64,000 bases of DNA, taken from assembly GCF_988243305.1 (NCBI RefSeq), contig NZ_OZ547136.1; one strand, given 5' to 3'. This document shows positions 38,764 to 56,415 of this stretch, in pieces. Numbering within the stretch: the first letter of the stretch is position 1; each line of letters opens with the position of its first letter. The position numbers were made by a program, and so were the translations under genes. The notes under the pieces were generated by a model that was not told the DNA's origin, ran no database searches, and saw only the letters and a program-made list of their open reading frames with translations.

Positions 38764-39093
38764 TTATGTTGGCGTTTTCTATTCAGTATAGAAGTGGGAG
38801 CGACTGGGCGAGATGCGGAAGTTCTGGAATGTTTTTTTTTGATGATGGTGACTGAAGCAAATTGGCTACATTTTGCAATATGACAAGTTATGGCAGTGCG
38901 GACTGGTGGCGAAGAATTTTGACGATTGAGGCATGCAGAAAAAACGGGTTCAGCTTCAGTTGATCAAATGAGGATTGAGAAGTCCGAAACAGGACTTACT
39001 GTATAAATAAACAGCTATTTTGCTAAGGAAGGGTAAGATAACGGCGGGTGCCTGAAGCTTTCCGGTTTCAGGTTTACTCTGAGGTCTGGAAAG

Positions 39094-39282
39094 ATGAAGC
39101 CCCAGGACGATATTTCTATCAACCCTGGGGCTGCCACTCCAAACCCAAACAATTTGGATGGTAGTCCCTTCTTCGCATGGAGGCAATATAAACATGCTGA
39201 CGAAATATGCCCTTGCGGCAGTCATAGTGCTGTGTTTGACGGTGCTGGGATTTACGCTTCTGGTCGGAGACTCGCTGTGTGA
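39094..39282 (+). CDS. Mok-like overlapping reading frame, 62 aa, copy 1
   Basis: ORF starts 100 nt upstream of hok and overlaps it out of frame, as in hok/sok systems. Confidence 0.5.
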
Positions 39283-39346: not shown

Positions 39347-39597
39347 CCGTTGTGCGGGGAGTAATCCCCGCATATCCGGTTGTCAGGTCAGGGTGGTAAG
39401 GCACCTGCTTTACACTTTCGCCCGCGGTCAGCAATGGCTGCGGGCGATGTCGTTTTAAGGGCAATGATCAGTTTTGCCAACAGAAGTCCGAAACAGGATT
39501 CACTGTATAAATAAACAGCTATTTTGCTGAGGAAGGGTAAGATAACGGCGGGTGCCTGAAGCTTTCCGGTTTCAGGTTAACTCTGAGGTCTGGAAAG

Positions 39598-39786
39598 ATG
39601 AAGCCCCAGGACGATATTTCTATCAACCCTGGGGCTACCTACCCAAACCTGAACAATTTGGATGGTAGTCCCTTCTTCGCATGGAGGCAATATAAACATG
39701 CTGACGAAATATGCCCTTGTGGCAGTCATAGTGCTGTGTTTAACGGTGCTGGGATTTACGCTTCTGGTCGGAGACTCGCTGTGTGA
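39598..39786 (+). CDS. Mok-like overlapping reading frame, 62 aa, copy 2
   Basis: Paralog of copy-1 mok with a few substitutions (AATPNPN to ATYPNLN, D49N). Confidence 0.5.
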
Positions 39787-40657: not shown

Positions 40658-40755
40658 GCCTGATGCGCTACGCTTATCAGGCCTACGTGGTCCTGCAATA
40701 TATTGAATTGGCAAGATTTTTGTAGGCCGGATAAGGCGTTCACGCCGCATCCGGC
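40658..40755. repeat. REP/BIME palindromic units between entD and fepA
   Basis: gcctgatgcgctacgcttatcaggcctac and gtaggccggataaggcgttcacgccgcatccggc match the REP consensus. Confidence 0.7.
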
Positions 40756-40794: not shown

Positions 40795-43035
40795 TCAGAA
40801 GTGAGTATTAATGCTCATATACCACGTACGTCCCGGCTCGTTATAGGTATATGCCCCGGCACCGGCGATATAGTTGGCTCCTGCCAGATCGCCTGTGGTC
40901 TGGGCATTACCCGCACGCCACAAACGTTTGTCGAACAGGTTGTCCACGCCGCCGGTCAGACTGACATTCTTCGTTACATCCCAGGTCGCGCTCAGGCCAA
41001 CAATGCTGTACGGGCTGATTTCTTTGGTTTCCGGTCCAACCGCTGGCTGACCTTTATAGTTGTACTTCTTCGGCTGCTGCTTGCCGTACCAGGTGAAGGT
41101 TGTTTGCATCGACAAATCTTCCCGTGCCTGCCAGCTCAGCGTTGAGTTCAACGTATACTCCGGGATGATCGACAAACGGTCGCCCGTGGTTTTGTTTTCA
41201 CTCTTCAGCATATAAGTGATGTTATTGGTCCACATCACCGTTTCGCTAACCGGTACGTTTAACGATCCTTCCAGACCTTCAACCACCGCTTTCGGTACGT
41301 TATCCCACTGATAGAGATCGGTGCCGACTGCGTTTTGCCCTACAGCCACATAGCCCGCTTCAATCTTATTGCGATAATCGTTACGGAACCAGGTGACGCC
41401 CGCCAGCCAGCCGTCGCGTTTGAACTCCAGACCAATCTCTTTGTTGATGCTGGTTTCTGCTTTCAGGTCATCATTACCTTGCAGATAGCAGCCGCCCGCG
41501 CTGGCATAGCAGCCCTGACCTTTACTGTAGAGAATGTAGTTCGGGTTAGTCTGGTACAGACTCGGCGCTTTATAAGCACGGGCAATGCCCATTTTCAGCG
41601 TGAAGTCATCGCCTAAACCTTGCGAGATGTTCAGCGCCGGACTCCAGTTATTGCCAACAATGCTGTGATGATCGAAACGCAGCCCCGGCGTTACGATGGT
41701 GCTGTCAGTCAGCTCCATATTGTTTTCGGCAAATAGCGAGAAAATTTCTGCTTTTGAATACGGGCTACGGTCGGTGGCACTCACGCCATCAATAGCACCG
41801 CCGGTATTCGTCCCAGTGAGCGCCTGGGTGTTGGAACTTAAATCCTTCATCCGCTGCTGATTCCACTCCGTACCCAGCGTCAGCGTCTGGTTAACGAGGA
41901 AATCAATCGGCAGGTTAACTTCGCTGTGCAGCATCACGTCATCGAGATCGATATCGACGAAATCCTGTGTCGCTTTTTCGTTAAATTTCCCTTCGGTACC
42001 GCCCGCCAGACCTTCCGGAATACGCGAGTTACGGGTGTGTTCGTACTGCACCCAGTTGCTGGTGGTCACGCCGTTATCCCAGCCGCCGTTCCATGTCAGC
42101 GAGTAGTTCTGGCGATACAGACGGTTGGTTTCATCGCCATATTTCGAGCGGGTATAGGAGTCAGAGTTGGTGTTCTGGGTGTCGCCCGCATACAGGTTAC
42201 CCTGGCGGCTGTAGCCCGCTTCCAGTTCGAGTGATTGCAGAGGCGCGAAGTCCCAGCGCACTACGCCATTAATATCTTTGTTAATTACCCCTTCGCGCCC
42301 GGCTGGTAACGTCGTGGCATACGTTCCGGCACGCGCGGACTGATGGCCCTGGTTGATATCCCACGCGTCAGCCTGGGTTTTGTCGAGGTTGCCATACAAG
42401 CGGAAGCTGAATTCGTCGCCCAGCGGACCGGTCAGGCTGAAGTTGGTGCGTTTAGTGGCACCTTCCTCTTTATGTTCTGGCGCATTGAAATAAGCGTCCC
42501 AGGAGCCGTGCCACTCACCGCTGCCTTTTTTGGTAATGATGTTAACCACGCCGCCCGCCGCGCCGTTGCCATAACGCGCAGCTGCCGGACCACGCAGAAC
42601 TTCAATACGTTCAATCATTTCAGGTGGCACCCAGGAAGTATCACCACGGGTATCGCGCTCGCCACGCCAGCCCTGACGCACCGAGTTACGGCTGCTTACC
42701 GGTTTGCCGTCAATCAAAATCAGCGTGTTTTCCGGACCCATGCCGCGAATATCAATCTGGCGGTTATTACCACGCTGACCACTGGTGGAGTTGCCGGTCA
42801 GGTTAACGCCTGGCATGGTACGGATGATCTCCGACACATCGCGGGCAACCGGGTTTTTGCGGATTTCATCTGCGGTGATGGTCGAAACGCCAGGTGCCTG
42901 CAAGTTCTGCTCGGCGGCGGTAACGACAATGGTATCGTCATGTGAAACAGGAGTATCGGTCGGCTCTTGTGCCTGTGCTACCCCATAAATCCCCAGATTG
43001 ACCAACAAGGCCAGGGAATGAATCTTCTTGTTCAT
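40795..43035 (-). CDS. fepA: TonB-dependent ferric enterobactin outer-membrane receptor, 746 aa
   Basis: Signal peptide, plug and beta-barrel, C-terminal TonB-dependent receptor ending ...SINTHF; start re-picked at MNKKIHSLALL with AGGA RBS. Confidence 0.95.
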   Translation of the reverse strand: MNKKIHSLALLVNLGIYGVAQAQEPTDTPVSHDDTIVVTAAEQNLQAPGVSTITADEIRKNPVARDVSEIIRTMPGVNLTGNSTSGQRGNNRQIDIRGMGPENTLILIDGKPVSSRNSVRQGWRGERDTRGDTSWVPPEMIERIEVLRGPAAARYGNGAAGGVVNIITKKGSGEWHGSWDAYFNAPEHKEEGATKRTNFSLTGPLGDEFSFRLYGNLDKTQADAWDINQGHQSARAGTYATTLPAGREGVINKDINGVVRWDFAPLQSLELEAGYSRQGNLYAGDTQNTNSDSYTRSKYGDETNRLYRQNYSLTWNGGWDNGVTTSNWVQYEHTRNSRIPEGLAGGTEGKFNEKATQDFVDIDLDDVMLHSEVNLPIDFLVNQTLTLGTEWNQQRMKDLSSNTQALTGTNTGGAIDGVSATDRSPYSKAEIFSLFAENNMELTDSTIVTPGLRFDHHSIVGNNWSPALNISQGLGDDFTLKMGIARAYKAPSLYQTNPNYILYSKGQGCYASAGGCYLQGNDDLKAETSINKEIGLEFKRDGWLAGVTWFRNDYRNKIEAGYVAVGQNAVGTDLYQWDNVPKAVVEGLEGSLNVPVSETVMWTNNITYMLKSENKTTGDRLSIIPEYTLNSTLSWQAREDLSMQTTFTWYGKQQPKKYNYKGQPAVGPETKEISPYSIVGLSATWDVTKNVSLTGGVDNLFDKRLWRAGNAQTTGDLAGANYIAGAGAYTYNEPGRTWYMSINTHF

Positions 43036-43203
43036 TGTTTTATTCCTGCATTTTTGCCACGAATTGCAACTGTCGGGCATGGTCGTCATCAATACGACGC
43101 ACCCCGCTACCGCGAAAACCTTTGATCCTGAAAGACACGCAGTGCAGTTGGTTAATTAATGTCCGCGCTTCCCACGGCGCGCCATTACGCTATTGCAAAT
43201 GCA

Positions 43204-43233
43204 AATAGTTATCAATAATATTATCAATATATT
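43204..43233. promoter_or_regulatory. Fur-box-like AT-rich hexamer repeats in the fepA-fes divergent promoter
   Basis: aatagttatcaataatattatcaatatatt contains overlapping GATAAT / ATTATC-like hexamers in a divergent iron-uptake promoter. Confidence 0.55.
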
Positions 43234-43277
43234 TCTGCAATCAATGAAAAATTGCACAGTAAACATGGGGTTATGGT

Positions 43278-44480
43278 GTGACGGCGTTAAAAGTAGGAAG
43301 TGAGAGCTGGTGGCAGTCGAAACATGGCCCGGAATGGCAGCGTCTGAATGACGAAATGTTTGAGGTCACTTTCTGGTGGCGTGATCCCCAAGGTTCTGAA
43401 GAATACTCGACGATAAAGCGCGTATGGGTCTACATCACTGGTGTGACCGATCACCATCAGAACAGCCAGCCCCAGTCGATGCAGCGAATTGCAGGTACCA
43501 ACGTCTGGCAGTGGACGACACAACTTAATGCCAACTGGCGCGGCAGCTACTGTTTTATTCCCACCGAACGCGATGACATTTTTTCTGCACCATCCCCCGA
43601 TCGCCTCGAATTACGTGAAGGCTGGCGAAAACTATTACCCCAGGCGATAGCCGATCCGCTGAATCCACAAAGCTGGAAAGGCGGGCGAGGGCACGCTGTT
43701 TCTGCACTCGAAATGCCGCAAGCGCCTCTGCAACCGGGATGGGATTGTCCGCAAGCGCCAGAAATACCTGTCAAAGAAATTATCTGGAAAAGTGAACAGT
43801 TGAAAAATTCACGCCGTGTATGGATTTTTACCACCGGCGATGCAACAGCAGAAGAACGCCCGCTGGCAGTTTTGCTTGATGGCGAATTTTGGGCGCAGAG
43901 TATGCCCGTCTGGCCTGCGCTGACTTCGCTGACCCATCGTCGGCAACTTCCTCCCGCCGTGTATGTGTTGATCGACGCTATCGACACCACGCACCGCGCT
44001 CACGAACTGCCGTGTAATGCGGATTTCTGGCTGGCAGTACAGCAAGAGTTATTACCCCTGGTGAAAGCTATTGCCCCTTTTAGCGATCGCGCCGATCGCA
44101 CCGTGGTCGCCGGGCAGAGTTTTGGTGGGCTTTCCGCGCTGTATGCCGGACTGCACTGGCCTGAACGCTTTGGCTGTGTATTAAGCCAGTCAGGATCGTA
44201 CTGGTGGCCGCATCGGGGCGGGCAGCAAGAAGGTGTTTTACTTGAGCAACTTAAAGCTGGTCAAGTTAGTGCCGAAGGTCTGCGCATTGTGCTGGAAGCG
44301 GGTATTCGCGAGCCGATGATCATGCAGGCCAATCAGGCGCTGTATGCGCAATTACACCCCATAAAAGAATCCATTTTCTGGCGTCAGGTTGACGGCGGAC
44401 ATGATGCGCTTTGTTGGCGCGGTGGCTTGATGCAGGGGCTAATCGACCTCTGGCAACCACTTTTCCATGACAGGAGTTGA
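43278..44480 (+). CDS. fes: enterochelin esterase, 400 aa (GTG start; a shorter internal-ATG form is possible)
   Basis: Esterase GxSxG motif (GQSFGG); ORF begins with GTG at 43278. Confidence 0.85.
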   Translation: MTALKVGSESWWQSKHGPEWQRLNDEMFEVTFWWRDPQGSEEYSTIKRVWVYITGVTDHHQNSQPQSMQRIAGTNVWQWTTQLNANWRGSYCFIPTERDDIFSAPSPDRLELREGWRKLLPQAIADPLNPQSWKGGRGHAVSALEMPQAPLQPGWDCPQAPEIPVKEIIWKSEQLKNSRRVWIFTTGDATAEERPLAVLLDGEFWAQSMPVWPALTSLTHRRQLPPAVYVLIDAIDTTHRAHELPCNADFWLAVQQELLPLVKAIAPFSDRADRTVVAGQSFGGLSALYAGLHWPERFGCVLSQSGSYWWPHRGGQQEGVLLEQLKAGQVSAEGLRIVLEAGIREPMIMQANQALYAQLHPIKESIFWRQVDGGHDALCWRGGLMQGLIDLWQPLFHDRS

Positions 44481-44482
44481 AT

Positions 44483-44701
44483 ATGGCATTCAGTAATCCC
44501 TTCGATGATCCGCAGGGAGCGTTTTACATTTTGCGCAATGCGCAGGGGCAATTCAGTCTGTGGCCGCAACAATGCGCCTTACCGGCAGGCTGGGACGTTG
44601 TGTGTCAGCCGCAGTCACAGGCGTCCTGCCAGCAGTGGCTTGAAGCCCACTGGCGTACTCTGACACCGGCGAATTTCACCCAGTTGCAGGAGGCACAATG
44701 A
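44483..44701 (+). CDS. ybdZ: MbtH-like protein, 72 aa
   Basis: Small ORF (MAFSNPFDDPQGAFYILRN...) directly upstream of the NRPS gene; stop overlaps the entF start (ATGA). Confidence 0.85.
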   Translation: MAFSNPFDDPQGAFYILRNAQGQFSLWPQQCALPAGWDVVCQPQSQASCQQWLEAHWRTLTPANFTQLQEAQ

Positions 44702-47700
44702 GCCAGCATTTACCTTTGGTCGCCGCACAGCCCGGCATCTGGATGGCAGAAAAACTGTCGGATTTACCCTCCGCCTGGAGCGTGGCGCATTACGTTGAGT
44801 TAACCGGAGAGGTTGATGCGCCATTACTGGCCCGCGCGGTGGTTGCCGGATTAGCGCAAGCAGATACGCTGCGGATGCGTTTTACGGAAGATAACGGCGA
44901 AGTCTGGCAGTGGGTCGATGATGCGCTGACGTTCGAACTGCCAGAAATTATCGATCTGCGTACCAACATTGATCCGCACGGTACTGCGCAGGCATTAATG
45001 CAGGCGGATTTACAGCAAAATCTACGTGCCGACAGCGGCAAACCGCTGGTCTTTCATCAGCTCATTCAGGTGGCAGATAACCGCTGGTATTGGTATCAGC
45101 GTTATCACCATTTGTTGGTCGATGGCTTCAGTTTCCCGGCAATTACCCGCCAGATCGCCAATATTTACTGCGCATGGCTGCGTGGCGAACCAACGCCTGC
45201 TTCGCCGTTTACGCCTTTCGCTGATGTCGTGGAAGAGTACCAGCAATACCGCGAAAGCGAAGCCTGGCAGCGAGATGCGGCATTCTGGACGGAACAGCGT
45301 CGTCAACTGCCGCCGCCCGCGTCACTTTCTCCGGCACCTTTACCGGGGCGCAGCGTCTCGGCAGATATTCTGCGCCTGAAACTGGAGTTTACCGACGGGG
45401 AATTCCGCCAGCTGGCTATGCAACTTTCAGGTGTGCAGCGTACCGATTTAGCCCTTGCGCTGGCGGCTTTGTGGCTGGGGCGATTGTGCAATCGCATGGA
45501 CTACGCCGCCGGATTTATCTTTATGCGTCGACTGGGCTCGGCGGCGCTGACGGCTACCGGACCCGTGCTCAACGTTTTGCCGTTGGGGATTCACATTGCG
45601 GCACAAGAAACGCTGCCGGAACTGGCAACCCGACTGGCAGCACAACTGAAAAAAATGCGTCGTCATCAACGTTACGATGCCGAACAAATTGTCCGTGACA
45701 GCGGGCGAGCGGCAGGAGAGGAACCGCTGTTCGGTCCGGTACTCAATATCAAGGTATTTGATTACCAACTGGATATTCCTGGTGTTCAGACGCAAACCCA
45801 TACCCTGGCAACCGGTCCGGTTAATGACCTTGAACTGGCCCTGTTCCCGGATGAACACGGTGATTTGAGTATTGAGATCCTCGCCAATAAACAGCGTTAC
45901 GATGAGCCAACGTTAATTCAACACGCTGAACGCCTGAAAATGCTGATTGCCCAGTTCGCCGCGGATCCGGCGCTGTTGTGCGGCGATGTCGATATTATGC
46001 TGCCAGGTGAATATGCGCAGCTGGCGCAGATCAACGCCACTCAGGTTGAGATTCCAGAAACCACGCTGAGCGCGCTGGTGGCAGAACAAGCGGCAAAAAC
46101 GCCGCATGCTCCGGCGCTGGCAGATGCGCGTTACCAGTTCAGCTATCGGGAAATGCGCGAGCAGGTGGTGGCGCTGGCGAATCTGCTGCGTGAGCGCGGC
46201 GTTAAACCAGGGGACAGCGTGGCGGTGGCATTACCGCGCTCGGTCTTTTTGACCCTGGCGCTACATGCGATAGTTGAAGCTGGCGCGGCCTGGCTACCGC
46301 TGGATACCGGTTATCCGGACGATCGCCTGAAAATGATGCTGGAAGATGCGCGTCCGTCGCTGTTAATCACCACCGACGATCAACTGCCGCGCTTTGCCGA
46401 TGTTCCAGATTTAACCAACCTTTGCTATAACGCCCCGCTTACACCGCAGGGCAGTGCGCCGCTGCAGCTTTCACAACCGCACCACACGGCTTATATCATC
46501 TTCACCTCAGGTTCCACCGGCAGACCAAAAGGGGTAATGGTCGGGCAGACGGCTATCGTTAACCGCCTGCTTTGGATGCAAAACCACTACCCGCTTACAG
46601 GCGAAGATGTCGTTGCCCAAAAAACGCCGTGCAGTTTTGATGTCTCGGTGTGGGAGTTTTTCTGGCCGTTTATTGCCGGGGCTAAACTGGTGATGGCTGA
46701 ACCGGAAGCGCACCGCGACCCGCTCGCTATGCAGCAATTCTTTGCCGAATATGGTGTAACGACCACGCACTTTGTGCCGTCGATGCTGGCGGCATTTGTT
46801 GCATCGCTGACTCCGCAAACCGCTCGCCAGAATTGCGCGACGTTGAAACAGGTTTTCTGTAGTGGTGAGGCCTTACCCGCTGATTTATGCCGCGAATGGC
46901 AACAGTTAACCAGCGTGCCGTTGCATAATTTATATGGCCCGACGGAAGCGGTGGTAGATGTCAGCTGGTATCCGGCTTTTGGCGAGGAACTGGCACAGGT
47001 ACGCGGCAGCAGTGTGCCGATTGGTTATCCGGTGTGGAACACGGGCCTGCGTATTCTTGATGCAATGATGCATCCGGTGCCGCCGGGTGTGGCGGGAGAT
47101 CTCTATCTCACCGGTATTCAACTGGCGCAGGGGTATCTTGGACGACCCGATCTGACCGCCAGCCGCTTTATTGCCGATCCTTTTGCCCCAGGTGAAAGGA
47201 TGTACCGTACCGGAGACGTTGCCCGCTGGCTGGATAACGGCGCGGTGGAGTACCTCGGGCGCAGTGACGATCAGCTAAAAATTCGCGGGCAGCGTATTGA
47301 ACTGGGCGAAATCGATCGCGTGATGCAGGCACTGCCGGATGTCGAACAGGCCGTTACCCACGCCTGTGTGATTAACCAGGCGGCAGCCACTGGTGGTGAT
47401 GCGCGTCAGTTGGTGGGCTATCTGGTGTCGCAATCGGGCCTGCCGTTGGATACCAGCGCATTACAGGCGCAGCTTCGCGAAACATTGCCACCACATATGG
47501 TGCCAGTGGTTCTGCTGCAACTTCCACAGTTACCTCTTAGCGCCAACGGCAAGCTGGATCGCAAAGCCTTACCGTTGCCTGAACTGAAAGCACAAGCGCC
47601 GGGGCGTGCGCCGAAAGCGGGCAGTGAAACGATTATCGCCGCGGCATTCTCGTCGTTGCTGGGTTGTGACGTGCAGGATGCCGATGCTGATTTCTTTGCG

Positions 47701-48579
47701 CTTGGCGGTCATTCGCTACTGGCAATGAAACTGGCTGCGCAGTTAAGTCGGCAGTTTACCCGCCAGGTGACGCCGGGGCAGGTGATGGTCGCGTCAACTG
47801 TCGCCAAACTGGCAACGATTATTGATGGTGAAGAAGACAGCACCCAGCGCATGGGATTCGAAACCATTCTGCCGTTGCGTGAAGGTAATGGCCCGACGCT
47901 GTTTTGTTTCCATCCGGCATCCGGTTTTGCCTGGCAGTTTAGCGTGCTTTCGCGTTATCTCGATCCACAATGGTCGATTATCGGCATTCAGTCGCCGCGC
48001 CCTCATGGCCCCATGCAGACGGCGGCAAACCTGGATGAAGTCTGCGAAGCGCATCTGGCAACGTTACTTGAACAACAACCGCACGGCCCTTATTACCTGC
48101 TGGGGTATTCGCTGGGCGGTACGCTGGCGCAGGGCATTGCGGCGCGACTGCGTGCCCGTGGCGAACAGGTGGCATTTCTTGGCTTGCTGGATACCTGGCC
48201 GCCAGAAACGCAAAACTGGCAGGAAAAAGAGGCTAATGGTCTGGACCCGGAAGTGCTGGCGGAGATTAACCGCGAGCGCGAGGCCTTCCTGGCGGCACAA
48301 CAGGGAAGTACTTCAACGGATTTGTTTACCACCATTGAAGGCAACTACGCTGATGCTGTGCGCCTGCTGACGACTGCTCATAGCGTACCGTTTGAAGGTA
48401 AAGCGACGCTGTTTGTTGCTGAACGCACACTTCAGGAAGGTATGAATCCCGAACGCGCCTGGTCGCCGTGGATTGCGGAGCTGGATATCTATCGTCAGGA
48501 TTGTGCGCATGTGGATATTATCTCTCCAGGGGCGTTTGAAAAAATTGGGCCGATTATTCGCGCTACGCTAAACAGGTAA
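44698..48579 (+). CDS. entF: enterobactin non-ribosomal peptide synthetase component F (C-A-T-TE), 1293 aa
   Basis: Condensation HHxxxDG (HHLLVDGFS), adenylation core FTSGSTGRPKGV, thiolation LGGHSL, thioesterase GYSLGG. Confidence 0.95.
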   Translation: MSQHLPLVAAQPGIWMAEKLSDLPSAWSVAHYVELTGEVDAPLLARAVVAGLAQADTLRMRFTEDNGEVWQWVDDALTFELPEIIDLRTNIDPHGTAQALMQADLQQNLRADSGKPLVFHQLIQVADNRWYWYQRYHHLLVDGFSFPAITRQIANIYCAWLRGEPTPASPFTPFADVVEEYQQYRESEAWQRDAAFWTEQRRQLPPPASLSPAPLPGRSVSADILRLKLEFTDGEFRQLAMQLSGVQRTDLALALAALWLGRLCNRMDYAAGFIFMRRLGSAALTATGPVLNVLPLGIHIAAQETLPELATRLAAQLKKMRRHQRYDAEQIVRDSGRAAGEEPLFGPVLNIKVFDYQLDIPGVQTQTHTLATGPVNDLELALFPDEHGDLSIEILANKQRYDEPTLIQHAERLKMLIAQFAADPALLCGDVDIMLPGEYAQLAQINATQVEIPETTLSALVAEQAAKTPHAPALADARYQFSYREMREQVVALANLLRERGVKPGDSVAVALPRSVFLTLALHAIVEAGAAWLPLDTGYPDDRLKMMLEDARPSLLITTDDQLPRFADVPDLTNLCYNAPLTPQGSAPLQLSQPHHTAYIIFTSGSTGRPKGVMVGQTAIVNRLLWMQNHYPLTGEDVVAQKTPCSFDVSVWEFFWPFIAGAKLVMAEPEAHRDPLAMQQFFAEYGVTTTHFVPSMLAAFVASLTPQTARQNCATLKQVFCSGEALPADLCREWQQLTSVPLHNLYGPTEAVVDVSWYPAFGEELAQVRGSSVPIGYPVWNTGLRILDAMMHPVPPGVAGDLYLTGIQLAQGYLGRPDLTASRFIADPFAPGERMYRTGDVARWLDNGAVEYLGRSDDQLKIRGQRIELGEIDRVMQALPDVEQAVTHACVINQAAATGGDARQLVGYLVSQSGLPLDTSALQAQLRETLPPHMVPVVLLQLPQLPLSANGKLDRKALPLPELKAQAPGRAPKAGSETIIAAAFSSLLGCDVQDADADFFALGGHSLLAMKLAAQLSRQFTRQVTPGQVMVASTVAKLATIIDGEEDSTQRMGFETILPLREGNGPTLFCFHPASGFAWQFSVLSRYLDPQWSIIGIQSPRPHGPMQTAANLDEVCEAHLATLLEQQPHGPYYLLGYSLGGTLAQGIAARLRARGEQVAFLGLLDTWPPETQNWQEKEANGLDPEVLAEINREREAFLAAQQGSTSTDLFTTIEGNYADAVRLLTTAHSVPFEGKATLFVAERTLQEGMNPERAWSPWIAELDIYRQDCAHVDIISPGAFEKIGPIIRATLNR

Positions 48580-48592
48580 ATTAATATTATCC

Positions 48593-48629
48593 ATAAACCC
48601 ATAATTACAGGAAATGATTATGGGTTTAT
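48593..48629 (+). terminator. perfect 13-bp inverted repeat hairpin downstream of entF (candidate terminator)
   Basis: ataaacccataat-N11-attatgggtttat followed by catttatttgattt; starts 14 nt after the entF stop. Confidence 0.5.
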
Positions 48630-48794
48630 CATTTATTTGATTTATAAGTTTGGTGGATATTTCTCTTAAATAGAGTGAATGTTGCATTCAGTGGAAGGAA
48701 TTTACAAACTTCAGCTTCGGATAATTCTCACCAACTGGTAAAGTGAGCGCCGTGGAGATTTCCCCCTATTGGACTCATTTTCAGGTTATACCCC

Positions 48795-49928
48795 ATGTCA
48801 TCACTGAATATTAAACAGGGAAGTGACGCTCATTTTCCCGAGTATCCTCTGGCGTCGCCCAGTAATAATGAAATTGATTTACTTAATCTAATCGCAGTTT
48901 TATGGCGGGCCAAAAAAACGGTCATGGCGGTCATTTTTGCATTTGCCTGCGCAGGTTTACTGATCTCTTTCATCCTGCCGCAAAAATGGACCAGCGCGGC
49001 GGTTGTCACGCCTCCAGAACCTGTTCAGTGGCAAGAGCTGGAGAAAACATTCACTAAGCTTCGAGTGCTGGATCTGGATATCAAAATTGATCGTACAGAA
49101 GCATTTAACCTGTTTATCAAGAAGTTTCAGTCGGTTAGCTTGCTGGAAGAGTACCTGCGTTCATCACCTTATGTGATGGACCAATTAAAAGAGGCGAAAA
49201 TCGACGAACTGGATTTGCATCGCGCAATTGTCGCATTGAGCGAAAAAATGAAAGCGGTTGATGACAATGCCAGTAAGAAAAAAGATGAACCGTCACTTTA
49301 TACCTCCTGGACGCTAAGTTTTACCGCGCCAACCAATGAAGAGGCGCAAACCGTTTTGAGCGGGTATATCGATTATATCTCTGCTCTGGTGGTGAAAGAG
49401 TCGATAGAAAATGAGCGCAATAGACTGGAGCTTAAAACCCAGTTTGAAAAAGAAAAACTGGCTCAGGACCGCATTAAAATGAAAAATCAACTTGATGCAA
49501 ACATTCAGCGCCTCAATTATTCACTCGACATTGCCAACGCGGCAGGAATTAAAAAGCCCGTTTACAGTAATGGTCAGGCCGTTAAAGATGACCCCGATTT
49601 CTCTATTTCTCTCGGCGCAGACGGTATTGAACGCAAACTGGAAATTGAAAAAGCGGTTACTGACGTTGCGGAACTGAACGGTGAATTACGTAATCGTCAG
49701 TATCTTGTCGAGCAATTAACAAAAGCAAATATCAACGATGTGAATTTTACGCCGTTTAAATATCAGTTAAGCCCGTCATTGCCAGTGAAAAAAGACGGTC
49801 CGGGTAAGGCGATTATTGTGATCCTTTCTGCGATGGTCGGCGGGATGGTGGCTTGTGGTGGCGTGCTGTTGCGCTATGCGATGGCATCCAGAAAACAGGA
49901 TGCCGTGATGGAAGAGCACTTAGTTTAA
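48795..49928 (+). CDS. fepE: polysaccharide co-polymerase (Wzz-like) protein FepE, 377 aa
   Basis: N- and C-terminal TM segments flanking a coiled-coil periplasmic domain; position after entF. Confidence 0.9.
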   Translation: MSSLNIKQGSDAHFPEYPLASPSNNEIDLLNLIAVLWRAKKTVMAVIFAFACAGLLISFILPQKWTSAAVVTPPEPVQWQELEKTFTKLRVLDLDIKIDRTEAFNLFIKKFQSVSLLEEYLRSSPYVMDQLKEAKIDELDLHRAIVALSEKMKAVDDNASKKKDEPSLYTSWTLSFTAPTNEEAQTVLSGYIDYISALVVKESIENERNRLELKTQFEKEKLAQDRIKMKNQLDANIQRLNYSLDIANAAGIKKPVYSNGQAVKDDPDFSISLGADGIERKLEIEKAVTDVAELNGELRNRQYLVEQLTKANINDVNFTPFKYQLSPSLPVKKDGPGKAIIVILSAMVGGMVACGGVLLRYAMASRKQDAVMEEHLV

Positions 49929-50740
49929 ATCTTGGCAGTTGAAGGTGCCGTTCGTCCGAGCGGCACCACGAGCGGAGTTCCGGCTACCGGATCGTCAATA
50001 ATCATGCAGCGCAGACCATAAATGCGCTCGATCAATTCAGCAGTGACAATCTCCTTCGGCGCTCCCTGAGCAACAATTTTCCCTTCCCGCAATGCAATCA
50101 AATGGCTGGCGTAACGACAGGCCTGATTAAGATCGTGCAGCACCGCCGCCAGGGTATAGCCTTTCTCGCGGTTCAGTTCGCTTAACAGTTCCAGCAAATC
50201 AATCTGATGACTGATATCCAGCCAGGTCGTTGGTTCATCGAGCAGCATAATTGCCGTTTCCTGGGCCAGCACCATTGCTATCCACGCTCGCTGGCGTTGT
50301 CCGCCAGAAAGGGTATCCACGCTTTGATCCGCCAGATGGGTGATTCCCGTGGCCTGCATCGCTTTTGTGACGGCCTCTTCATCTTCTTTGCGCCAGCGGG
50401 TAAACAGCGGTTGATGCGGGTAACGCCCACGCGCCACCAGCTCCTGCACGGTGATATCTCCCGGCGTGGTGGCGTTTTGCGCCAACAGGCCAATCCGGCG
50501 TGCAACCTCTTTACTGGCGTAATGTTGAATGTGCTCACCATCCAGCCAGACATGCCCGTGAGCAGGCGTCATCAGGCGGCTTAAGGTACGCAGTAACGTG
50601 GATTTACCGCAGCCATTTGGCCCGATAATTGCCGTGAAGTGACCATCAGGTATTTCTACAGTCAGATTTTCTGCAACGGTATATTTGCCATATCCGAGGG
50701 TTAACTGTTCGCCGCGCAAACGGGCTACTGATTCGGTCAT
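49925..50740 (-). CDS. fepC: ferric enterobactin ABC transporter ATP-binding protein, 271 aa
   Basis: Walker A GPNGCGKST, ABC signature LSGGQRQR, Walker B LLDEPTT; start re-picked at MTESVARLRGEQ. Confidence 0.9.
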   Translation of the reverse strand: MTESVARLRGEQLTLGYGKYTVAENLTVEIPDGHFTAIIGPNGCGKSTLLRTLSRLMTPAHGHVWLDGEHIQHYASKEVARRIGLLAQNATTPGDITVQELVARGRYPHQPLFTRWRKEDEEAVTKAMQATGITHLADQSVDTLSGGQRQRAWIAMVLAQETAIMLLDEPTTWLDISHQIDLLELLSELNREKGYTLAAVLHDLNQACRYASHLIALREGKIVAQGAPKEIVTAELIERIYGLRCMIIDDPVAGTPLVVPLGRTAPSTAKI

Positions 50741-51729
50741 TTTTTGCGAGACTCCTGAATTAACAAGACGATAAGGTAAATACCACCGAGGCTGACGGTA
50801 ACGACGCCAACCGGAAGTTGATACGGCATAAACAGTTGTTGGGCGCATAGATCGGCCGCCAGCAGTAACAACGCCCCGCACAGCGCCGCCTGGGTCAGCC
50901 CCCAGCGAGCGGTGCCGCTAATGCGCCGGGCAATGTGTGGCGCGACTAAAGCAATAAAGGAAATCGGCCCGGCAAGCGCCGTTGCCGCAGCGGTGAGCAC
51001 CACTGCCACCAGCATCATTAACAGCCGCGAACGTTCGACGCTGACGCCCAACGCACACGCGGTATCATCGCCCATTTCCAGCAAGCGCATCCGGCGTACC
51101 AGTAAGGCGGCGGCAATGAGCATCAATATAATGATGGGCGCGGAAGGCGAGGTTTTTGCCCACGTCAGGCCGTTGAGCGATCCGGCATTCCACAAACCCG
51201 CTGTTAGCGCCGTTTCTAAAGACGCTTTCAGCAACAACCAGGTATTAAAGGCCACCAGCATGGCGCGAACACCGATACCGATAATAATCAACCGAAAGGT
51301 GTCGATACCGTTACGCCAGGCAAGCAGCCAGACCAGCAGCGAGGTGACAATGCCGCCCACCATTGCTGCCAGGGCGATAGCCGTCAGGTCCTGACCAAAC
51401 AGCACCATCGCCACCAGCACGCCGCTCCACGCCCCGGTGTTAAAGCCCATTACGTCAGGGCTGCCGAGCGGGTTACGCATCAGCGACTGAAAAATCGCGC
51501 CGCTGACGCCCAGAGCCGCGCCAATTAACAGCGCCATCAGCACGCGTGGTAAACGCCATTCGGTGACCACCATCGTCATACTGCGCGGCGCATCGCCCAT
51601 CAGCGCGGCGAATATCTGCGAGGTTTCCAGCGTGACGGCACCGCTGCGTAATCCCCAGATACCTGCAACCACACAGGCGGTAATTAGCAGCAAACAGGTG
51701 ATGATTAATCGGCGAGAGACGTAAATCAT
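50737..51729 (-). CDS. fepG: ferric enterobactin ABC transporter permease, 330 aa
   Basis: FecCD-family permease; 4-nt overlaps with fepC and fepD. Confidence 0.9.
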   Translation of the reverse strand: MIYVSRRLIITCLLLITACVVAGIWGLRSGAVTLETSQIFAALMGDAPRSMTMVVTEWRLPRVLMALLIGAALGVSGAIFQSLMRNPLGSPDVMGFNTGAWSGVLVAMVLFGQDLTAIALAAMVGGIVTSLLVWLLAWRNGIDTFRLIIIGIGVRAMLVAFNTWLLLKASLETALTAGLWNAGSLNGLTWAKTSPSAPIIILMLIAAALLVRRMRLLEMGDDTACALGVSVERSRLLMMLVAVVLTAAATALAGPISFIALVAPHIARRISGTARWGLTQAALCGALLLLAADLCAQQLFMPYQLPVGVVTVSLGGIYLIVLLIQESRKK

Positions 51730-52730
51730 GCGCCACCTCGCGTTTTACGTCGCACGAGGAAGATCAGCACCGGTGCGCCAATAAAGGCACTGACTACAGA
51801 AACGCGCAGTTCGCCGGGCACAATCACCCGTCCGATGATATCGGCAAACAGCAGCAGGGCAGGGGTAGCAAGCAGCGTGACGGGCAGCGACCAGCGATGA
51901 TCGGCACCCACCAACCAACGTGCCATATGCGGCATCATCAGGCCAATAAAGGCAATCGGGCCAACTACCGCCGTCGCACTACCACAAAGCACGGTAATCG
52001 CCAGCAGACCAATCAACTGTGTGCGCGCCACGCGACTACCCAGCGCCGTCGCGGTGTCACTGCCGAGGCTTAAACTGTTCAGCGCGCGGCTCAGTAATAG
52101 CGCGGTTGCTCCGGCGATCAGCACCGGGATCAGCACCACTTTTAAGGTATGTAGATTGCGAATATCCAGCGAACCGGCTTGCCAGAAACGCAACTGATCG
52201 TAGACGTCAGGATTAAGCAGGGCGATGCCGCTGGTCAGCCCTTCCAGCACCGCCGCCAGTGCCACGCCCGCCAGGGTTAAACGCACCGGACTTAACTGCC
52301 CGCCGCCCTGGCTGCCGGTAAAGGCAACAATCAATGAGGCCACCAGCGCCCCGGCGAAGGCCATCGCCAGTTGTTCCTGTGCGGAAGAGTAACCAAACAG
52401 CGCCGCACCCAGCACAATGGCAAAGCTGGCTCCGGCGTTCACGCCAAGCAAGCCGGGGTCGGCAAGTGGGTTTCGGGTGAGGGTTTGCATCAGCGCCCCG
52501 GCAAGCCCAAGCGCACCGCCTGCCAGTAAACCGGCAAGGGTGCGCGGCAGACGGGCGTCGAGCACAATGGTGCAGTCGGCGCTCTGGCAGGTGCCGGAGA
52601 GCGCCTCCAGCACTACGGAAGCGGGGAGTGATTTTGCCCCAATGAGCAGGCTTAATGCCGTCGCGATAATCAGTAATAACAGCAATCCGGGCACGGCAAT
52701 GGCGCGTGTCACGGCAACAGAACCAGACAT
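51726..52730 (-). CDS. fepD: ferric enterobactin ABC transporter permease, 334 aa
   Basis: FecCD-family permease; start re-picked at MSGSVAVTRAIAV. Confidence 0.9.
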   Translation of the reverse strand: MSGSVAVTRAIAVPGLLLLLIIATALSLLIGAKSLPASVVLEALSGTCQSADCTIVLDARLPRTLAGLLAGGALGLAGALMQTLTRNPLADPGLLGVNAGASFAIVLGAALFGYSSAQEQLAMAFAGALVASLIVAFTGSQGGGQLSPVRLTLAGVALAAVLEGLTSGIALLNPDVYDQLRFWQAGSLDIRNLHTLKVVLIPVLIAGATALLLSRALNSLSLGSDTATALGSRVARTQLIGLLAITVLCGSATAVVGPIAFIGLMMPHMARWLVGADHRWSLPVTLLATPALLLFADIIGRVIVPGELRVSVVSAFIGAPVLIFLVRRKTRGGA

Positions 52731-52742
52731 ACGAACTTCCAT

Positions 52743-52767
52743 GATAATGAAATTAATTATCGTTATC
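52743..52767. promoter_or_regulatory. Fur-box-like element in the fepD-entS divergent promoter
   Basis: gataatgaaattaattatcgttatc (GATAAT...ATTATC arrangement). Confidence 0.55.
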
Positions 52768-52840
52768 GATCTTATTTGGATATGTTAGCATGTGCAGCCT
52801 AAGAATAGGTATTTAAAATATTTGATGGCAAGGCATTGTA

Positions 52841-54091
52841 ATGAATAAACAATCCTGGCTGCTTAACCTCAGCCTGTTGAAAACGCACCCGGCGTTTCGC
52901 GCAGTATTCCTCGCTCGTTTTATCTCAATTGTGTCTCTGGGTTTGCTCGGCGTCGCGGTGCCGGTGCAGATCCAGATGATGACGCATTCTACCTGGCAGG
53001 TGGGGCTTTCGGTAACGCTGACCGGCGGGGCGATGTTTGTTGGCCTGATGGTCGGCGGTGTGCTGGCGGATCGCTATGAGCGCAAAAAAGTGATTTTGCT
53101 GGCGCGCGGCACCTGTGGCATTGGCTTCATTGGACTGTGCCTGAACGCGCTGCTGCCGGAGCCATCTTTGCTGGCAATCTATTTACTCGGATTATGGGAT
53201 GGTTTTTTCGCATCGCTTGGCGTTACGGCGCTACTGGCGGCGACACCTGCACTGGTAGGGCGTGAAAACTTAATGCAGGCCGGGGCGATCACCATGTTGA
53301 CTGTGCGCCTGGGATCGGTGATTTCGCCTATGATTGGTGGTTTACTGCTGGCGACTGGCGGCGTAGCCTGGAACTACGGGCTGGCGGCGGCGGGCACGTT
53401 TATTACCTTGCTACCGTTGTTAAGCCTTCCGGCGTTACCACCACCACCGCAGCCGCGTGAGCATCCGTTGAAATCATTACTGGCAGGATTTCGTTTTCTA
53501 CTCGCCAGCCCGCTGGTAGGAGGGATTGCGCTGTTGGGGGGGTTATTGACGATGGCGAGCGCGGTGCGGGTACTGTATCCGGCGCTGGCTGACAACTGGC
53601 AGATGTCGGCGGCACAGATTGGTTTTCTCTATGCGGCGATCCCGCTCGGCGCGGCTATTGGCGCGTTAACCAGCGGGAAGCTGGCGCATAGCGCGCGACC
53701 AGGGTTATTGATGCTGCTCTCCACGCTGGGATCGTTCCTCGCCATTGGTCTGTTTGGCCTGATGCCGATGTGGATTTTAGGCGTGGTTTGTCTGGCGCTA
53801 TTCGGCTGGCTGAGCGCGGTCAGCTCGTTGCTGCAATACACAATGCTGCAAACGCAAACCCCGGAAGCGATGTTAGGGCGGATTAACGGTTTGTGGACGG
53901 CGCAAAACGTGACGGGCGATGCCATAGGCGCGGCGCTGCTGGGCGGTTTGGGCGCGATGATGACACCGGTTACTTCCGCAAGCGCGAGCGGTTTTGGATT
54001 GTTGATTATCGGCGTGTTGTTGTTGCTGGTGCTGGTGGAGTTGCGACGTTTTCGCCAGACGCCGCCGCAGGTGACAGCGTCCGACAGTTAA
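52841..54091 (+). CDS. entS: MFS enterobactin exporter, 416 aa
   Basis: 12-TM MFS-like sequence; divergent from fepD. Confidence 0.9.
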
Positions 54092-54094
54092 TGC

Positions 54095-55051
54095 TTAAAA
54101 CAGCGCCTTAAGTCGTTCCAGCACTTGCATGGCGCTGTAGTAATCCAGTCGGAACGTCTCGGTTCCCAGCGCATAAACCTGCTTGTTTTGTACTGCGGGC
54201 AGGTGCGCGAGCAGTGGATTGGCATAAATAGCATCGGCATCTTTCTGATCACCGGCGAACAGGAATAGTGACTCGCCATTTAACCCTGCAGCCAGATTTT
54301 CTCCACCAAGCTGAATGATGTCATGGCGTTTGCCCTGGCTTTGGCTGGCGTTTAACCCTGCTGGCAACTTCGCCAGCGTAAAGCCGAGTTGTTCCAGCAT
54401 CTGCCCTTGTGCTGATTCCGGCGTCCAGAGATTGGCACTGTGCGCGGCGGCGGTATAGACAATGGCAGTGACCGGCTGCGGCGGTAATTTGATTTGCTCT
54501 TTCGCCGCTGCCAGTTGCTTATCAAACTGTGCAATCCGCTCTGCCGCTTGTTTCTCATGCCCGGTAATTTCGCCAAGTTGCGTTAACAGCGACTGCCAGC
54601 TTTTGTCGTCGTAATTGATGATTAATGTCGGGGCGATGGTGGAAAGCTGATCGTATAGCGCCAGCGCCGAATCGCCGCCGGTCGCGCTAATTAAAATCAG
54701 ATCCGGCATTTGCGCGGCAACGGCTTCGGCACTTGGTTCACCGATATAGAGTCGTTGCAATTTGCGTTCTTTCGCTACCTTGCTCCACTGGCGTAAAAAG
54801 CCCTGGTCATCCGCGACGCGGTTATTTGGCGTGGTCGCGCCGCTGGCAATCACCGGAGCATCAATCGCCAGCAGTGAGCCAGTCAGGGTGATGCTGGTGG
54901 AAACAATACGCTGCGGCTGGCTTTCCAGGGTATGAGTGCCCCGGCTGTCAGTAATCTGACGCGGCCAGTCGGCGGCCTGAACTGCGACTATTCCTGAAAG
55001 CAAAAGTCCTGTTAATAGAAGGGCGTTGCGGTAGAGCGAGGCGAGTCTCAC
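54095..55051 (-). CDS. fepB: periplasmic ferric enterobactin-binding protein, 318 aa (GTG start)
   Basis: Signal peptide plus siderophore-binding protein sequence; start codon is GTG with GGAAG RBS. Confidence 0.9.
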
Positions 55052-55191
55052 AAATCAGCTTCCTGTTATTAATGAAGTTAATGCTTCTCATTTTCATTGT
55101 AACCACAACCAGATGCAACCCCGAGTTGCAGATTGCGTTACCTCAAGAGTTGACATAGTGCGCGTTTGCTTTTAGGTTAGCGACCGAAAAT

Positions 55192-55210
55192 ATAAATGAT
55201 AATCATTATT
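55192..55210. promoter_or_regulatory. Fur box in the fepB-entC divergent promoter
   Basis: ATAAATGATAATCATTATT matches the 19-bp Fur consensus GATAATGATAATCATTATC at 17 of 19 positions. Confidence 0.7.
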
Positions 55211-55239
55211 AAAGCCTTTATCATTTTGTGGAGGATGAT

Positions 55240-56415
55240 ATGGATACGTCACTGGCTGAGGAAGTACAGCAGACCATGGCAACACTTGCGCCCAATCGCT
55301 TTTTCTTTATGTCGCCGTACCGCAGTTTTACGACGTCAGGATGTTTCGCCCGCTTCGATGAACCGGCTGTGAACGGGGATTCGCCCGACAGTCCCTTCCA
55401 GCAAAAACTCGCCGCGCTGTTTGCCGATGCCAAAGCGAAGGGCATCAAAAATCCGGTGATGGTCGGGGCGATTCCCTTCGATCCACGTCAGCCTTCATCG
55501 CTGTATATTCCTGAATCCTGGCAGTCGTTCTCCCGCCAGGAAAAACAAGCTTCCGCACGCCGTTTCACCCGCAGCCAGTCGCTGAACGTGGTGGAACGTC
55601 AGGCAATTCCGGATCAAACCACGTTTGAACAGATGGTTGCTCGCGCCGCCGCACTTACCGCCACGCCGCAGGTCGACAAAGTGGTGTTGTCACGGTTGAT
55701 TGATATCACCACTGACGCCGCCATTGATAGTGGCGTATTGCTGGAACGGTTGATTGCGCAAAACCCGGTTAGTTACAACTTCCATGTCCCGCTGGCTGAT
55801 GGTGGCGTTCTGCTGGGGGCCAGCCCGGAACTGCTGCTACGTAAAGACGGCGAGCGTTTTAGCTCCATTCCGTTAGCCGGTTCCGCGCGTCGTCAGCCGG
55901 ATGAAGTGCTCGATCGCGAAGCGGGTAATCGTCTGCTGGCGTCAGAAAAAGATCGCCATGAACATGAACTGGTGACTCAGGCGATGAAAGAGGTACTGCG
56001 AGAACGCAGCAGTGAGTTAAACGTTCCTTCCTCTCCACAATTGATTACCACGCCGACGCTGTGGCATCTCGCAACTCCCTTTGAAGGTAAAGCGAATTCG
56101 CAAGAAAACGCACTGACTCTGGCCTGTCTACTGCATCCGACCCCCGCGCTGAGCGGTTTCCCGCATCAGGCCGCGACTCAGGTTATTGCTGAACTGGAGC
56201 CGTTCGACCGCGAACTGTTTGGCGGCATTGTGGGTTGGTGTGACAGCGAAGGTAACGGTGAATGGGTGGTGACCATCCGCTGCGCGAAGCTGCGGGAAAA
56301 TCAGGTGCGTCTGTTTGCCGGAGCGGGGATTGTGCCTGCGTCCTCACCGTTGGGTGAGTGGCGCGAAACAGGCGTCAAACTTTCTACCATGTTGAACGTT
56401 TTTGGATTGCATTAA
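55240..56415 (+). CDS. entC: isochorismate synthase, 391 aa
   Basis: Chorismate-binding enzyme sequence; ATG at 55240 with GGAGGA RBS (ORF track starts at an upstream GTG). Confidence 0.9.

Follow-up and report, generated by a model that had tools for sequence, protein, structure and literature searches.

The Fur operators of the enterobactin (ent) cluster of Escherichia coli K-12 are already known, having been footprinted between 1990 and 2002, scored with a position weight matrix (PWM) in 2007 and mapped by ChIP-exo between 2014 and 2023. In the K-12 fepB-entC region (Brickman, Ozenberger & McIntosh 1990), two distinct stretches are protected, one per promoter (PMC2189734). In fepA-fes (Hunt, Pettis & McIntosh 1994), one Fur cluster lies across both divergent promoters. 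In fepDGC-entS (ybdA; Christoffersen et al. 2001; Lavrrar et al. 2002; Lavrrar & McIntosh 2003), an F-F-x-R-R array is reported to take up three Fur dimers, the apparent Kd being ~3 nM (PMC2189734). The information-theory model of Chen et al. 2007, which had already accomplished the PWM scoring proposed for the present DNA in a first-pass annotation, assigned 23.1 bits to entC, 20.1 to fepD-entS, 18.7 to fepA-fes and 16.7 to fepB (PMC2189734). For both MG1655 and W3110, Fur ChIP-exo peaks have been reported at these operators, and all six ent transcription units are members of a core Fur regulon of 36 genes common to nine strains (Gao et al. 2023, PMC10164565).

The window analysed here, a stretch of 64,000 nucleotides, carries between 40 and 58 kb an enterobactin cluster of E. 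coli type, with the synteny and gene content of the E. coli ent cluster in the order entD-fepA / fes-ybdZ-entF-fepE / fepCGD / entS / fepB / entCEBA and with three divergent junctions. The corresponding intergenic regions (31-43% GC) lie where the first-pass annotation had placed them, namely fepA-fes at 43036-43277 (minus-strand start codon of fepA at 43033-43035, fes GTG at 43278), fepD-entS at 52731-52840 (fepD ATG at 52728-52730 on the minus strand, entS ATG at 52841) and fepB-entC at 55052-55239 (188 bp here vs 374 bp in K-12). Almost certainly, this span comprises the Fur operators already known for the enterobactin regulon, in four clusters distributed over three bidirectional promoter regions. 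Only three operators had been counted at first; the fepB-entC region holds two separate ones, the fepB-proximal of which had been missed. All operator blocks are base-for-base identical to the footprinted, orthologous K-12 operators, and the K-12 footprints (PMC2189734, Table 3) enclose every PWM site when mapped onto the window. Identity is 100% from the fepB Fur box to the entC start codon and over the whole fepD-entS intergenic region, and extends over the operator block of fepA-fes, where the only two substitutions (43094 and 43103) fall in the fepA leader, outside the operator. The sole operator-level difference is a repeat that K-12 carries at the margin of its fepB site. Fur control of the three regions, as originally proposed, is thus backed by identity to footprinted operators (PMC2189734) together with published ChIP-exo data and core-regulon membership (PMC10164565). 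Binding and Fur-dependent expression are carried over from the literature, where they are described for K-12 and eight other strains with the same sequence; the matrix matches, their statistical excess, the base identity and the deep positional conservation are observed directly in this work.

The 19-bp Fur matrix was built from 17 K-12 Fur sites outside the ent cluster, with loci taken at their published centres; the register of 13 of the 17 traces to the Chen et al. 2007 model, which includes ent sites and hence introduces a mild circularity. Leave-one-out scores of the 17 true training sites range from 10.3 to 27.9 bits. Of all 19-mers in the 64-kb window, the six with the highest scores lie within the three intergenic regions (25.3, 18.5, 18.0, 16.8, 16.6 and 14.8 bits), the best score elsewhere being 14.1 bits. 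Region maxima are 18.0 bits for fepA-fes, 18.5 for fepD-entS and 25.3 for fepB-entC, as compared with means of 3.3-4.7 bits in 5000 dinucleotide shuffles per region (P = 0.001, 0.004 and <0.0002, respectively). The best scores of the four operators (25.3, 18.5, 18.0 and 14.8 bits) lie inside the range of the validated sites, as befits Fur boxes of E. coli type, and in all four clusters overlapping sites are offset by 6 bp, as in multi-dimer operators. The sites start at 43198 (18.0 bits), 43204 (6.2) and 43210 (10.7) in the fepA-fes cluster (43198-43228), at 52740 (7.0), 52746 (18.5) and 52752 (16.8) in fepD-entS (52740-52770), at 55074 (9.3) and 55080 (14.8) in the fepB-proximal operator (55074-55098) and at 55189 (16.6), 55195 (25.3) and 55207 (10.2) in entC (55189-55225). 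The scoring suggested by the first-pass annotation has been run, and Fur-box-like sequences stand well above the shuffled background in all three regions. With respect to Chen et al. 2007, the ent sites are excluded from the present matrix and a cross-species comparison is added; scores differ by at most 2.2 bits, and the ranking (entC > fepD-entS > fepA-fes > fepB) and the 6-bp-spaced clusters are the same.

Such matches could in principle be a by-product of AT-rich promoter DNA, or mark the sites of other AT-binding proteins, instead of specific Fur operators. The low GC content of the three regions would fit this explanation, and other AT-rich stretches of the window, for example the sfm region, do reach 11-14 bits. 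However, dinucleotide shuffles rarely or never attain the observed scores, the boxes themselves stay unchanged from genus to genus as adjoining AT-rich sequence drifts, and in K-12 both footprinting and ChIP-exo detect Fur at these very sequences (PMC2189734; PMC10164565). We regard this explanation as extremely improbable and effectively refuted.

The positional conservation of the Fur operators was followed through 80 Enterobacteriaceae loci, in which the junctions that are present keep the same order. At fepA-fes, all 45 species in which this junction was evaluable have a site of at least 18 bits upstream of fes, at a distance of 65-80 bp (mostly 69-72), and the operator block is invariant in 43 distinct orthologous sequences. 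A strong site is found 25-32 bp from the fepD start in 79/79 species, and a site of at least 15 bits ~35 bp upstream of entC in 77 of 79. The fepB operator block is at least 90% conserved in the cross-species alignment; from genus to genus, the operator is of low or varying strength (median 12.7 bits). The blocks of the alignment that are invariant correspond to the operators and to the candidate promoter hexamers. This agrees with the earlier remark that nothing here looks novel, as the operators are both previously characterised and deeply conserved.

The entC operator is the strongest of the set, as first stated, both with our matrix (25.3 vs 18.5, 18.0 and 14.8 bits) and in the published scores (PMC2189734). 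The centre of its 25.3-bit site lies 36 bp upstream of the ATG of entC, within the mapped K-12 footprint at 55186-55234. The 17/19 consensus match first attributed to this box could not be reproduced: ATAAATGATAATCATTATT (55192-55210) matches the classical consensus GATAATGATAATCATTATC at 15/19 positions, a register shifted by 3 bp (AATGATAATCATTATCATT) gives 16/19, and 16/19 was the maximum over the other registers and strands searched. The box also matches the 7-1-7 motif at 13/14 and the 6-1-6 motif at 11/12 positions. By the classical count, the best box of the window is instead that of fepD-entS, GATAATGAAATTAATTATC (52743-52761), with 16/19. Its description as more degenerate than entC therefore holds under the PWM or the 7-1-7 motif and fails by the classical count (16/19 vs 15/19). 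The fepD-entS array, GATAAT GAAATT A ATTATC GTTATC, follows the F-F-x-R-R pattern, with 27 of its 30 hexamer positions matching, and is enclosed by a K-12 footprint mapping to 52712-52780. In the fepA-fes operator (K-12 footprint at 43186-43233), the box matches the consensus at 13/19 and its hexamers at 4, 4, 5, 5 and 6 of 6 positions, so that its initial description as a degenerate, extended hexamer array is accurate. It is worth noting that such consensus counts mislead, entC scoring 15/19 and fepD-entS higher.

The fepB-proximal operator (15/19 consensus; K-12 footprint at 55071-55101) lies ~115 bp from the entC box and, being weaker here than in K-12 and weak or variable in other genera, is the one whose strength in this strain is least certain. 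An empty target site, TAA, is found at 55079-55081, within both the operator and the 5' leader. This genome is without the 183-bp GC-rich palindromic dispersed repeat that ~51% of complete E. coli genomes, including K-12, carry at this position. In K-12, the repeat and a duplication of the TAA sit inside the left edge of the operator and the leader is 186 bp longer; where the window scores 9.3 bits, this allele has acquired a site of 19.2 bits (ATCAATAATGCTTCTCATT), so that the best fepB site scores 14.8 bits here vs 19.2 in K-12. An intergenic region of at most 196 bp is shared by 65 of 79 other species, which makes the short arrangement the probable ancestral one.

The exact promoter hexamers can only be assigned as candidates, from sequence and alignment. 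Conserved candidate -35 and -10 hexamers overlap or abut the Fur clusters, and a sigma-70 consensus scan found only some of them; the same scan also listed several "promoters" that are the palindromic Fur box itself. A candidate fes promoter on the plus strand (43193-43221; -35 TTGCAA at 43193-43198, 17-bp spacer, -10 TAATAT at 43216-43221), suggested by sequence reading and cross-species invariance, is overlapped over its whole length by the Fur cluster; with only 8/12 consensus positions, it escaped the scan. On the opposite strand, a putative fepA promoter (43215-43244; -35 TTGATT at 43244-43239, -10 TATTAT at 43220-43215; 9/12 consensus), conserved across species, would have its -10 within the cluster. 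A GC-rich conserved block at 43163-43185 was also considered as an RNA hairpin of the fepA leader and was rejected, as it displays no compensatory changes and alifold predicts no hairpin. For entC, the candidate elements on the plus strand (55150-55178; -35 TTGACA at 55150-55155, 17-bp spacer, -10 TAGGTT at 55173-55178) are both invariant or nearly so across genera in the alignment profile; they are absent from the output of the sigma-70 scan, as is the candidate fepB promoter. The latter, on the minus strand (55090-55118; -35 TTGCAT at 55118-55113, 17-bp spacer, -10 GAAAAT at 55095-55090), is proposed on the basis of a conserved GATGCAA block together with the operator block, and its -10 and predicted start fall within the Fur operator of fepB. 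The PWM lends no support to two of the MG1655 ChIP-exo peaks assigned to the cluster, which map to 43046-43079 and 55383-55414; not every reported ChIP-exo peak is explained by a box.

Based on the above data, repression would proceed as follows. When iron is sufficient, Fe2+-Fur dimers would occupy overlapping 19-bp sites at 6-bp offsets and coat 30-50 bp that cover the sigma-70 promoter elements or follow immediately downstream, thereby blocking RNA polymerase. As iron falls, Fur would leave and fepA-entD, fes-ybdZ-entF(-fepE), fepDGC, entS, fepB and entCEBAH would be derepressed. The geometry differs at each junction: a single cluster over both back-to-back promoters at fepA-fes, one F-F-x-R-R array at fepD-entS that would act both ways and lies upstream of the fepD start codon by 16-34 bp, and two operators ~115 bp apart, each presumably serving one promoter, at fepB-entC.

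The quality of the Fur box could set a graded response within this scheme, as first proposed, with repression tightest at entC and looser at the degenerate arrays of fepA-fes and fepD-entS. The PWM scores of the operators do span ~10 bits, the apparent Kd values of the natural sites differ in vitro (3.0 nM for entS with three dimers and 8.6 nM for fepB with two, values of Lavrrar & McIntosh as cited in PMC2189734), and MG1655 RNA-seq reveals two response tiers that match the published split of the cluster between two iModulons, Fur-1 and Fur-2. Fur-dependent derepression is observed in all nine strains, and the log2 ratio of fur deletion to wild type in MG1655 is 6.6 for fepA, 6.0 for entC and 5.4 for fes (~40-100-fold), and 2.7 for entS, 2.6 for fepB and 2.5 for fepD (~6-fold; PMC10164565). 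The tiers, however, do not track operator score. The fepA-fes operator, at 18.0 bits and 13/19, shares the strong tier with entC, whereas fepD-entS, with 18.5 bits, 16/19, three dimers and the lower of the two measured Kd values, is found in the weak one; moreover, the fepD-entS box of most other genera, at 23.0 bits, scores as high as that of entC or higher. In addition, the six genes are all equally low when iron is replete (11-35 units), and it is the derepressed level in the fur deletion, 83-2205 units with a ~25-fold spread, that generates the tiers (PMC10164565), in a comparison that is two-state and hence blind to iron thresholds. Of the proposed grading, the existence of two tiers is retained, whereas their dependence on box quality is possible but unlikely, and we infer that promoter strength and operator position account for the tiers better than the match of the box does.

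In Escherichia, the otherwise invariant fepD-entS box is weakened by a GATAGT to GAAATT change in its second hexamer (52749-52754), from 23.0 to 18.5 bits. There is no difference at this site within Escherichia; the other genera have GATAGT. The short fepB leader and this change might measurably retune Fur control of the transport genes with respect to K-12-type strains and other genera. The insertion point of the repeat inside the fepB operator, the 19.2 bits of the K-12 allele vs 9.3 in the window, the polymorphism of the allele at roughly 50% and the 4.5-bit deficit of the Escherichia fepD-entS box relative to all 75 other evaluable species loci speak in favor of such an effect. The main 14.8-bit fepB site and the predicted promoter are nevertheless unchanged, and the log2 fold-changes of fepB over the nine strains, unsorted by allele, range from 2.2 to 5.9 with no obvious two-class pattern (PMC10164565), which makes measurable retuning rather improbable. 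More speculatively still, the presence or absence of the fepB repeat and the Escherichia-wide two-base weakening of fepD-entS might give rise to lineage-specific iron thresholds for the transport genes, the biosynthesis promoters remaining untouched.

For the enterobactin regulon, box score does not predict fold-derepression in the ent cluster, and the fepB repeat polymorphism and the genus-specific fepD-entS change provide small natural experiments on operator strength.

Four Fur operators in the enterobactin (ent) cluster of the window are real, significant, deeply conserved and already fully characterised. An ORF listing and a megablast comparison with 5,426 complete E. coli genomes show that the cluster, at 40-58 kb, is canonical, with the order entD-fepA (-), fes-ybdZ-entF-fepE (+), fepCGD (-), entS (+), fepB (-) and entCEB... 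(+). Its divergent junctions are fepA-fes (43036-43277), fepD-entS (52731-52840) and fepB-entC (55052-55239), and the span given by the first-pass annotation, which begins at the start of fepA and ends at that of entC, is correct. The three Fur-controlled regions proposed there are all real, but they contain four operators, not three, with a separate fepB-proximal one.

The best matches of the window among the 5,426 genomes share 98.0-98.9% identity with it, and the ent region is more distant from other Escherichia (~94% for Escherichia sp. MOD1-EC7003, 90-93% for E. whittamii, 91% for E. albertii), which places the window in E. coli in the broad sense; the sequence points to a lineage that complete E. 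coli genomes cover poorly. Several of the top E. coli matches are isolates from the environment (outdoor, sediment, gull). Just upstream of entD lie two tandem hokE/sok toxin-antitoxin copies (39046-39202 and 39550-39706; sok Rfam scores 82-84 bits), where K-12 instead has IS186. The short entD-fepA spacer has a match to the ES036 (CssrF) sRNA family (40679-40720, minus strand; 42.2 bits, gathering score 37.6).

Matrix scoring of the three junctions had been set beforehand as the test of the proposed boxes. Chen et al. 2007 (PMC2189734), who give the centre and the gene distance of K-12 Fur sites shown by footprint or gel shift, served as the training source. Seventeen non-ent sites (fhuA, gpmA, fiu, fur, efeU, tonB, ydiE, cirA, mntH, exbB, nfeF, bfd, ryhB, sodA, fecI, fecA and fhuF) were taken from NC_000913.3 and, once their register was confirmed, built into a strand-symmetric 19-bp log-odds matrix; true sites score 10.3-27.9 bits in leave-one-out, the register of the gel-shift-confirmed ones having first been set by a model for which ent sites were also used. 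The top six 19-mers of the 64 kb all fall within the three junctions: entC 55195 (25.3 bits), fepD-entS 52746 (18.5), fepA-fes 43198 (18.0), fepD-entS 52752 (16.8), entC 55189 (16.6) and fepB 55080 (14.8), against at most 14.1 bits elsewhere. Among 5000 dinucleotide-preserving shuffles per junction, the observed maximum was reached at a frequency of 0.001 for fepA-fes, 0.004 for fepD-entS and 0/5000 for fepB-entC. Given these frequencies and the placement of the top six, the boxes score above background. Inside each cluster the sites are staggered by 6 bp, as described by Chen et al. 2007 (PMC2189734).

The AT-rich sfmH/sfmF/fimZ region holds the next-best matches (11.5-14.1 bits; 15397-15415, 16141-16159 and 16643-16664); an MG1655 Fur ChIP-exo peak, "sfmF intragenic" (Gao 2023, PMC10164565), maps to ~16075-16096, close to these matches and not on them. 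The 5' end of fepE contains two weak overlapping Fur-like sites (48861-48885; 8.1 and 7.6 bits, 13/19 classical). Deleting fur in MG1655 raises fepE by 3.3 log2, a rise that read-through from entF could equally explain.

The ranking of the operators varies with the scoring model used. When both strands were scanned with the classical 19-bp consensus GATAATGATAATCATTATC, the window's best site was fepD-entS (52743, GATAATGAAATTAATTATC, 16/19), followed by entC (55192, ATAAATGATAATCATTATT, 15/19), the fepB-proximal site (55077, GTTAATGCTTCTCATTTTC, 15/19) and fepA-fes (43195, GCAAATGCAAATAGTTATC, 13/19). The 17/19 previously attributed to the entC box was not reached in any register on either strand with this consensus; the actual count is 15/19, or at most 16/19 against the shifted consensus AATGATAATCATTATCATT. 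"Near-consensus" is nevertheless a fair description of its palindromic core, with 13/14 matches to the 7-1-7 motif and 11/12 to the 6-1-6 motif, even though the match number was wrong. The box is the unique window best for the shifted consensus and for both motifs.

The operators are those of K-12. The fepD-entS junction is 100% identical in the two, fepA-fes differs at 2 bases, both outside the operator, and fepB-entC shows no difference over the stretch that runs from the fepB box to the entC ATG inclusive. Published footprints (PMC2189734, Table 3), converted to NC_000913.3 by adding 777 and checked on gpmA, fiu and stated gene distances, map to 43186-43233 (fepA-fes), 52712-52780 (fepD-entS), 55071-55101 (fepB) and 55186-55234 (entC), and enclose all matrix sites of the junctions. 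The earlier interpretation was right in kind. Our operator order reproduces that of the published information-theory scores (entC 23.1, fepD-entS 20.1, fepA-fes 18.7, fepB 16.7; PMC2189734). Fur ChIP-exo peaks of MG1655 and W3110 fall on the same four positions (Gao et al. 2023, PMC10164565, Dataset 2), on the assumption of the older coordinate system, with which their numbers agree. Two more MG1655 peaks, at 43046-43079 (assigned fepA-entD) and 55383-55414 (entC coding region), have no Fur box by the matrix (best score < -6 bits).

Conservation was followed in 80 loci, one genome per species, retrieved with an EntS query (Escherichia, Salmonella, Citrobacter, Enterobacter, Klebsiella, Raoultella, Kluyvera, Kosakonia, Leclercia and others); gene starts were placed by tblastn and the junctions matrix-scanned. 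A site of at least 18 bits lies 65-80 bp (mostly 69-72) upstream of fes in 45/45 evaluable species, the fepD-entS site (median 23.0 bits) 25-32 bp from the fepD start in 79/79, and an entC site of at least 15 bits ~35 bp upstream of entC in 77/79. The fepB site is variable (median 12.7 bits; ~28-39 bp from the fepB start in most). Only Intestinirhabdus alba and Klebsiella indica are without the strong entC site; their fepB-entC junctions are enlarged (344 and 453 bp, respectively) and in its place carry a 19-bit site ~150 bp from the fepB start. Across MAFFT alignments of 43-77 distinct sequences, invariance is confined to the operators and plausible promoter hexamers (entC TTGACA/TAGGTT, fepB TTGCAT, fes TTGCAA/TAATAT), and the leader around them drifts. 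A GC-rich block on the fepA-leader strand (43163-43185, GCGC-N8-GCGCG), just outside the Fur footprint and upstream of the probable fes -35, is also conserved across genera; a hairpin there has no support from compensatory base changes. The second hexamer of the fepD-entS box (52749-52754) is GAAATT in K-12 and all four Escherichia of the set, versus GATAGT or a close variant in 75/75 evaluable loci of other species (GATACT in one), a ~4.5-bit cost (18.5 versus 23.0 bits).

The fepB-entC spacing is 374 bp in K-12 versus 188 bp in the window. K-12 owes the extra length to a GC-rich, internally palindromic element of 183 bp with a flanking TAA duplication (15542-15724 in comparison locus L018). 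The element is one of a family of dispersed repeats, of which a genome has a median of 14 partial copies. Its insertion point is the empty TAA target at window 55079-55081, within the left edge of the fepB operator. The site is filled in 2755/5426 complete E. coli genomes (~51%; 2721 when counted by the insert itself), and about half of a spread sample of E. coli genomes has the short form, which is probably ancestral because the junction is at most 196 bp in 65/79 other species. With the insertion, the fepB leader is 186 bp longer and a 19.2-bit Fur site (ATCAATAATGCTTCTCATT) arises, the window counterpart of which scores 9.3 bits. Literature footprints and Kd values for fepB come from this long allele and carry over to the window genome only partly.

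Fe2+-Fur dimers occupy overlapping sites on different helix faces, coating the operator. Transferring such established knowledge to the anatomy seen here, with promoters assigned from conservation and hexamer matches, we infer that the fepA-fes cluster spans the fes -35/-10 and the fepA -10, so that one array would shut both promoters. At fepB-entC each promoter has its own operator, over the putative fepB -10 and start and directly downstream of the putative entC -10, respectively. According to Chen et al. 2007 (PMC2189734), the fepD-entS array is located between the promoter and the start codon, and it is bound by three Fur dimers with a Kd of 3 nM (Lavrrar & McIntosh data quoted in PMC2189734).

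Control graded by box quality had also been proposed. In iron-replete MG1655 RNA-seq (PMC10164565), a two-state comparison that places iron thresholds outside its reach, log2(fur deletion/wild type) is 6.6 for fepA, 6.0 for entC and 5.4 for fes, versus 2.7 for entS, 2.6 for fepB and 2.5 for fepD, and these two tiers recur in all nine strains. A gradation thus exists, but it is not ordered by operator score: the high tier includes fepA-fes (18.0 bits) and the low one fepD-entS (18.5 bits). The earlier account of its cause is only partly right. Wild-type levels of the six genes in MG1655 are alike (11-35 units), and fur-deletion levels range over 83-2205 units (PMC10164565). Uniform repressed and spread derepressed levels indicate that the tiers reflect derepressed promoter output, not leaky weak operators.
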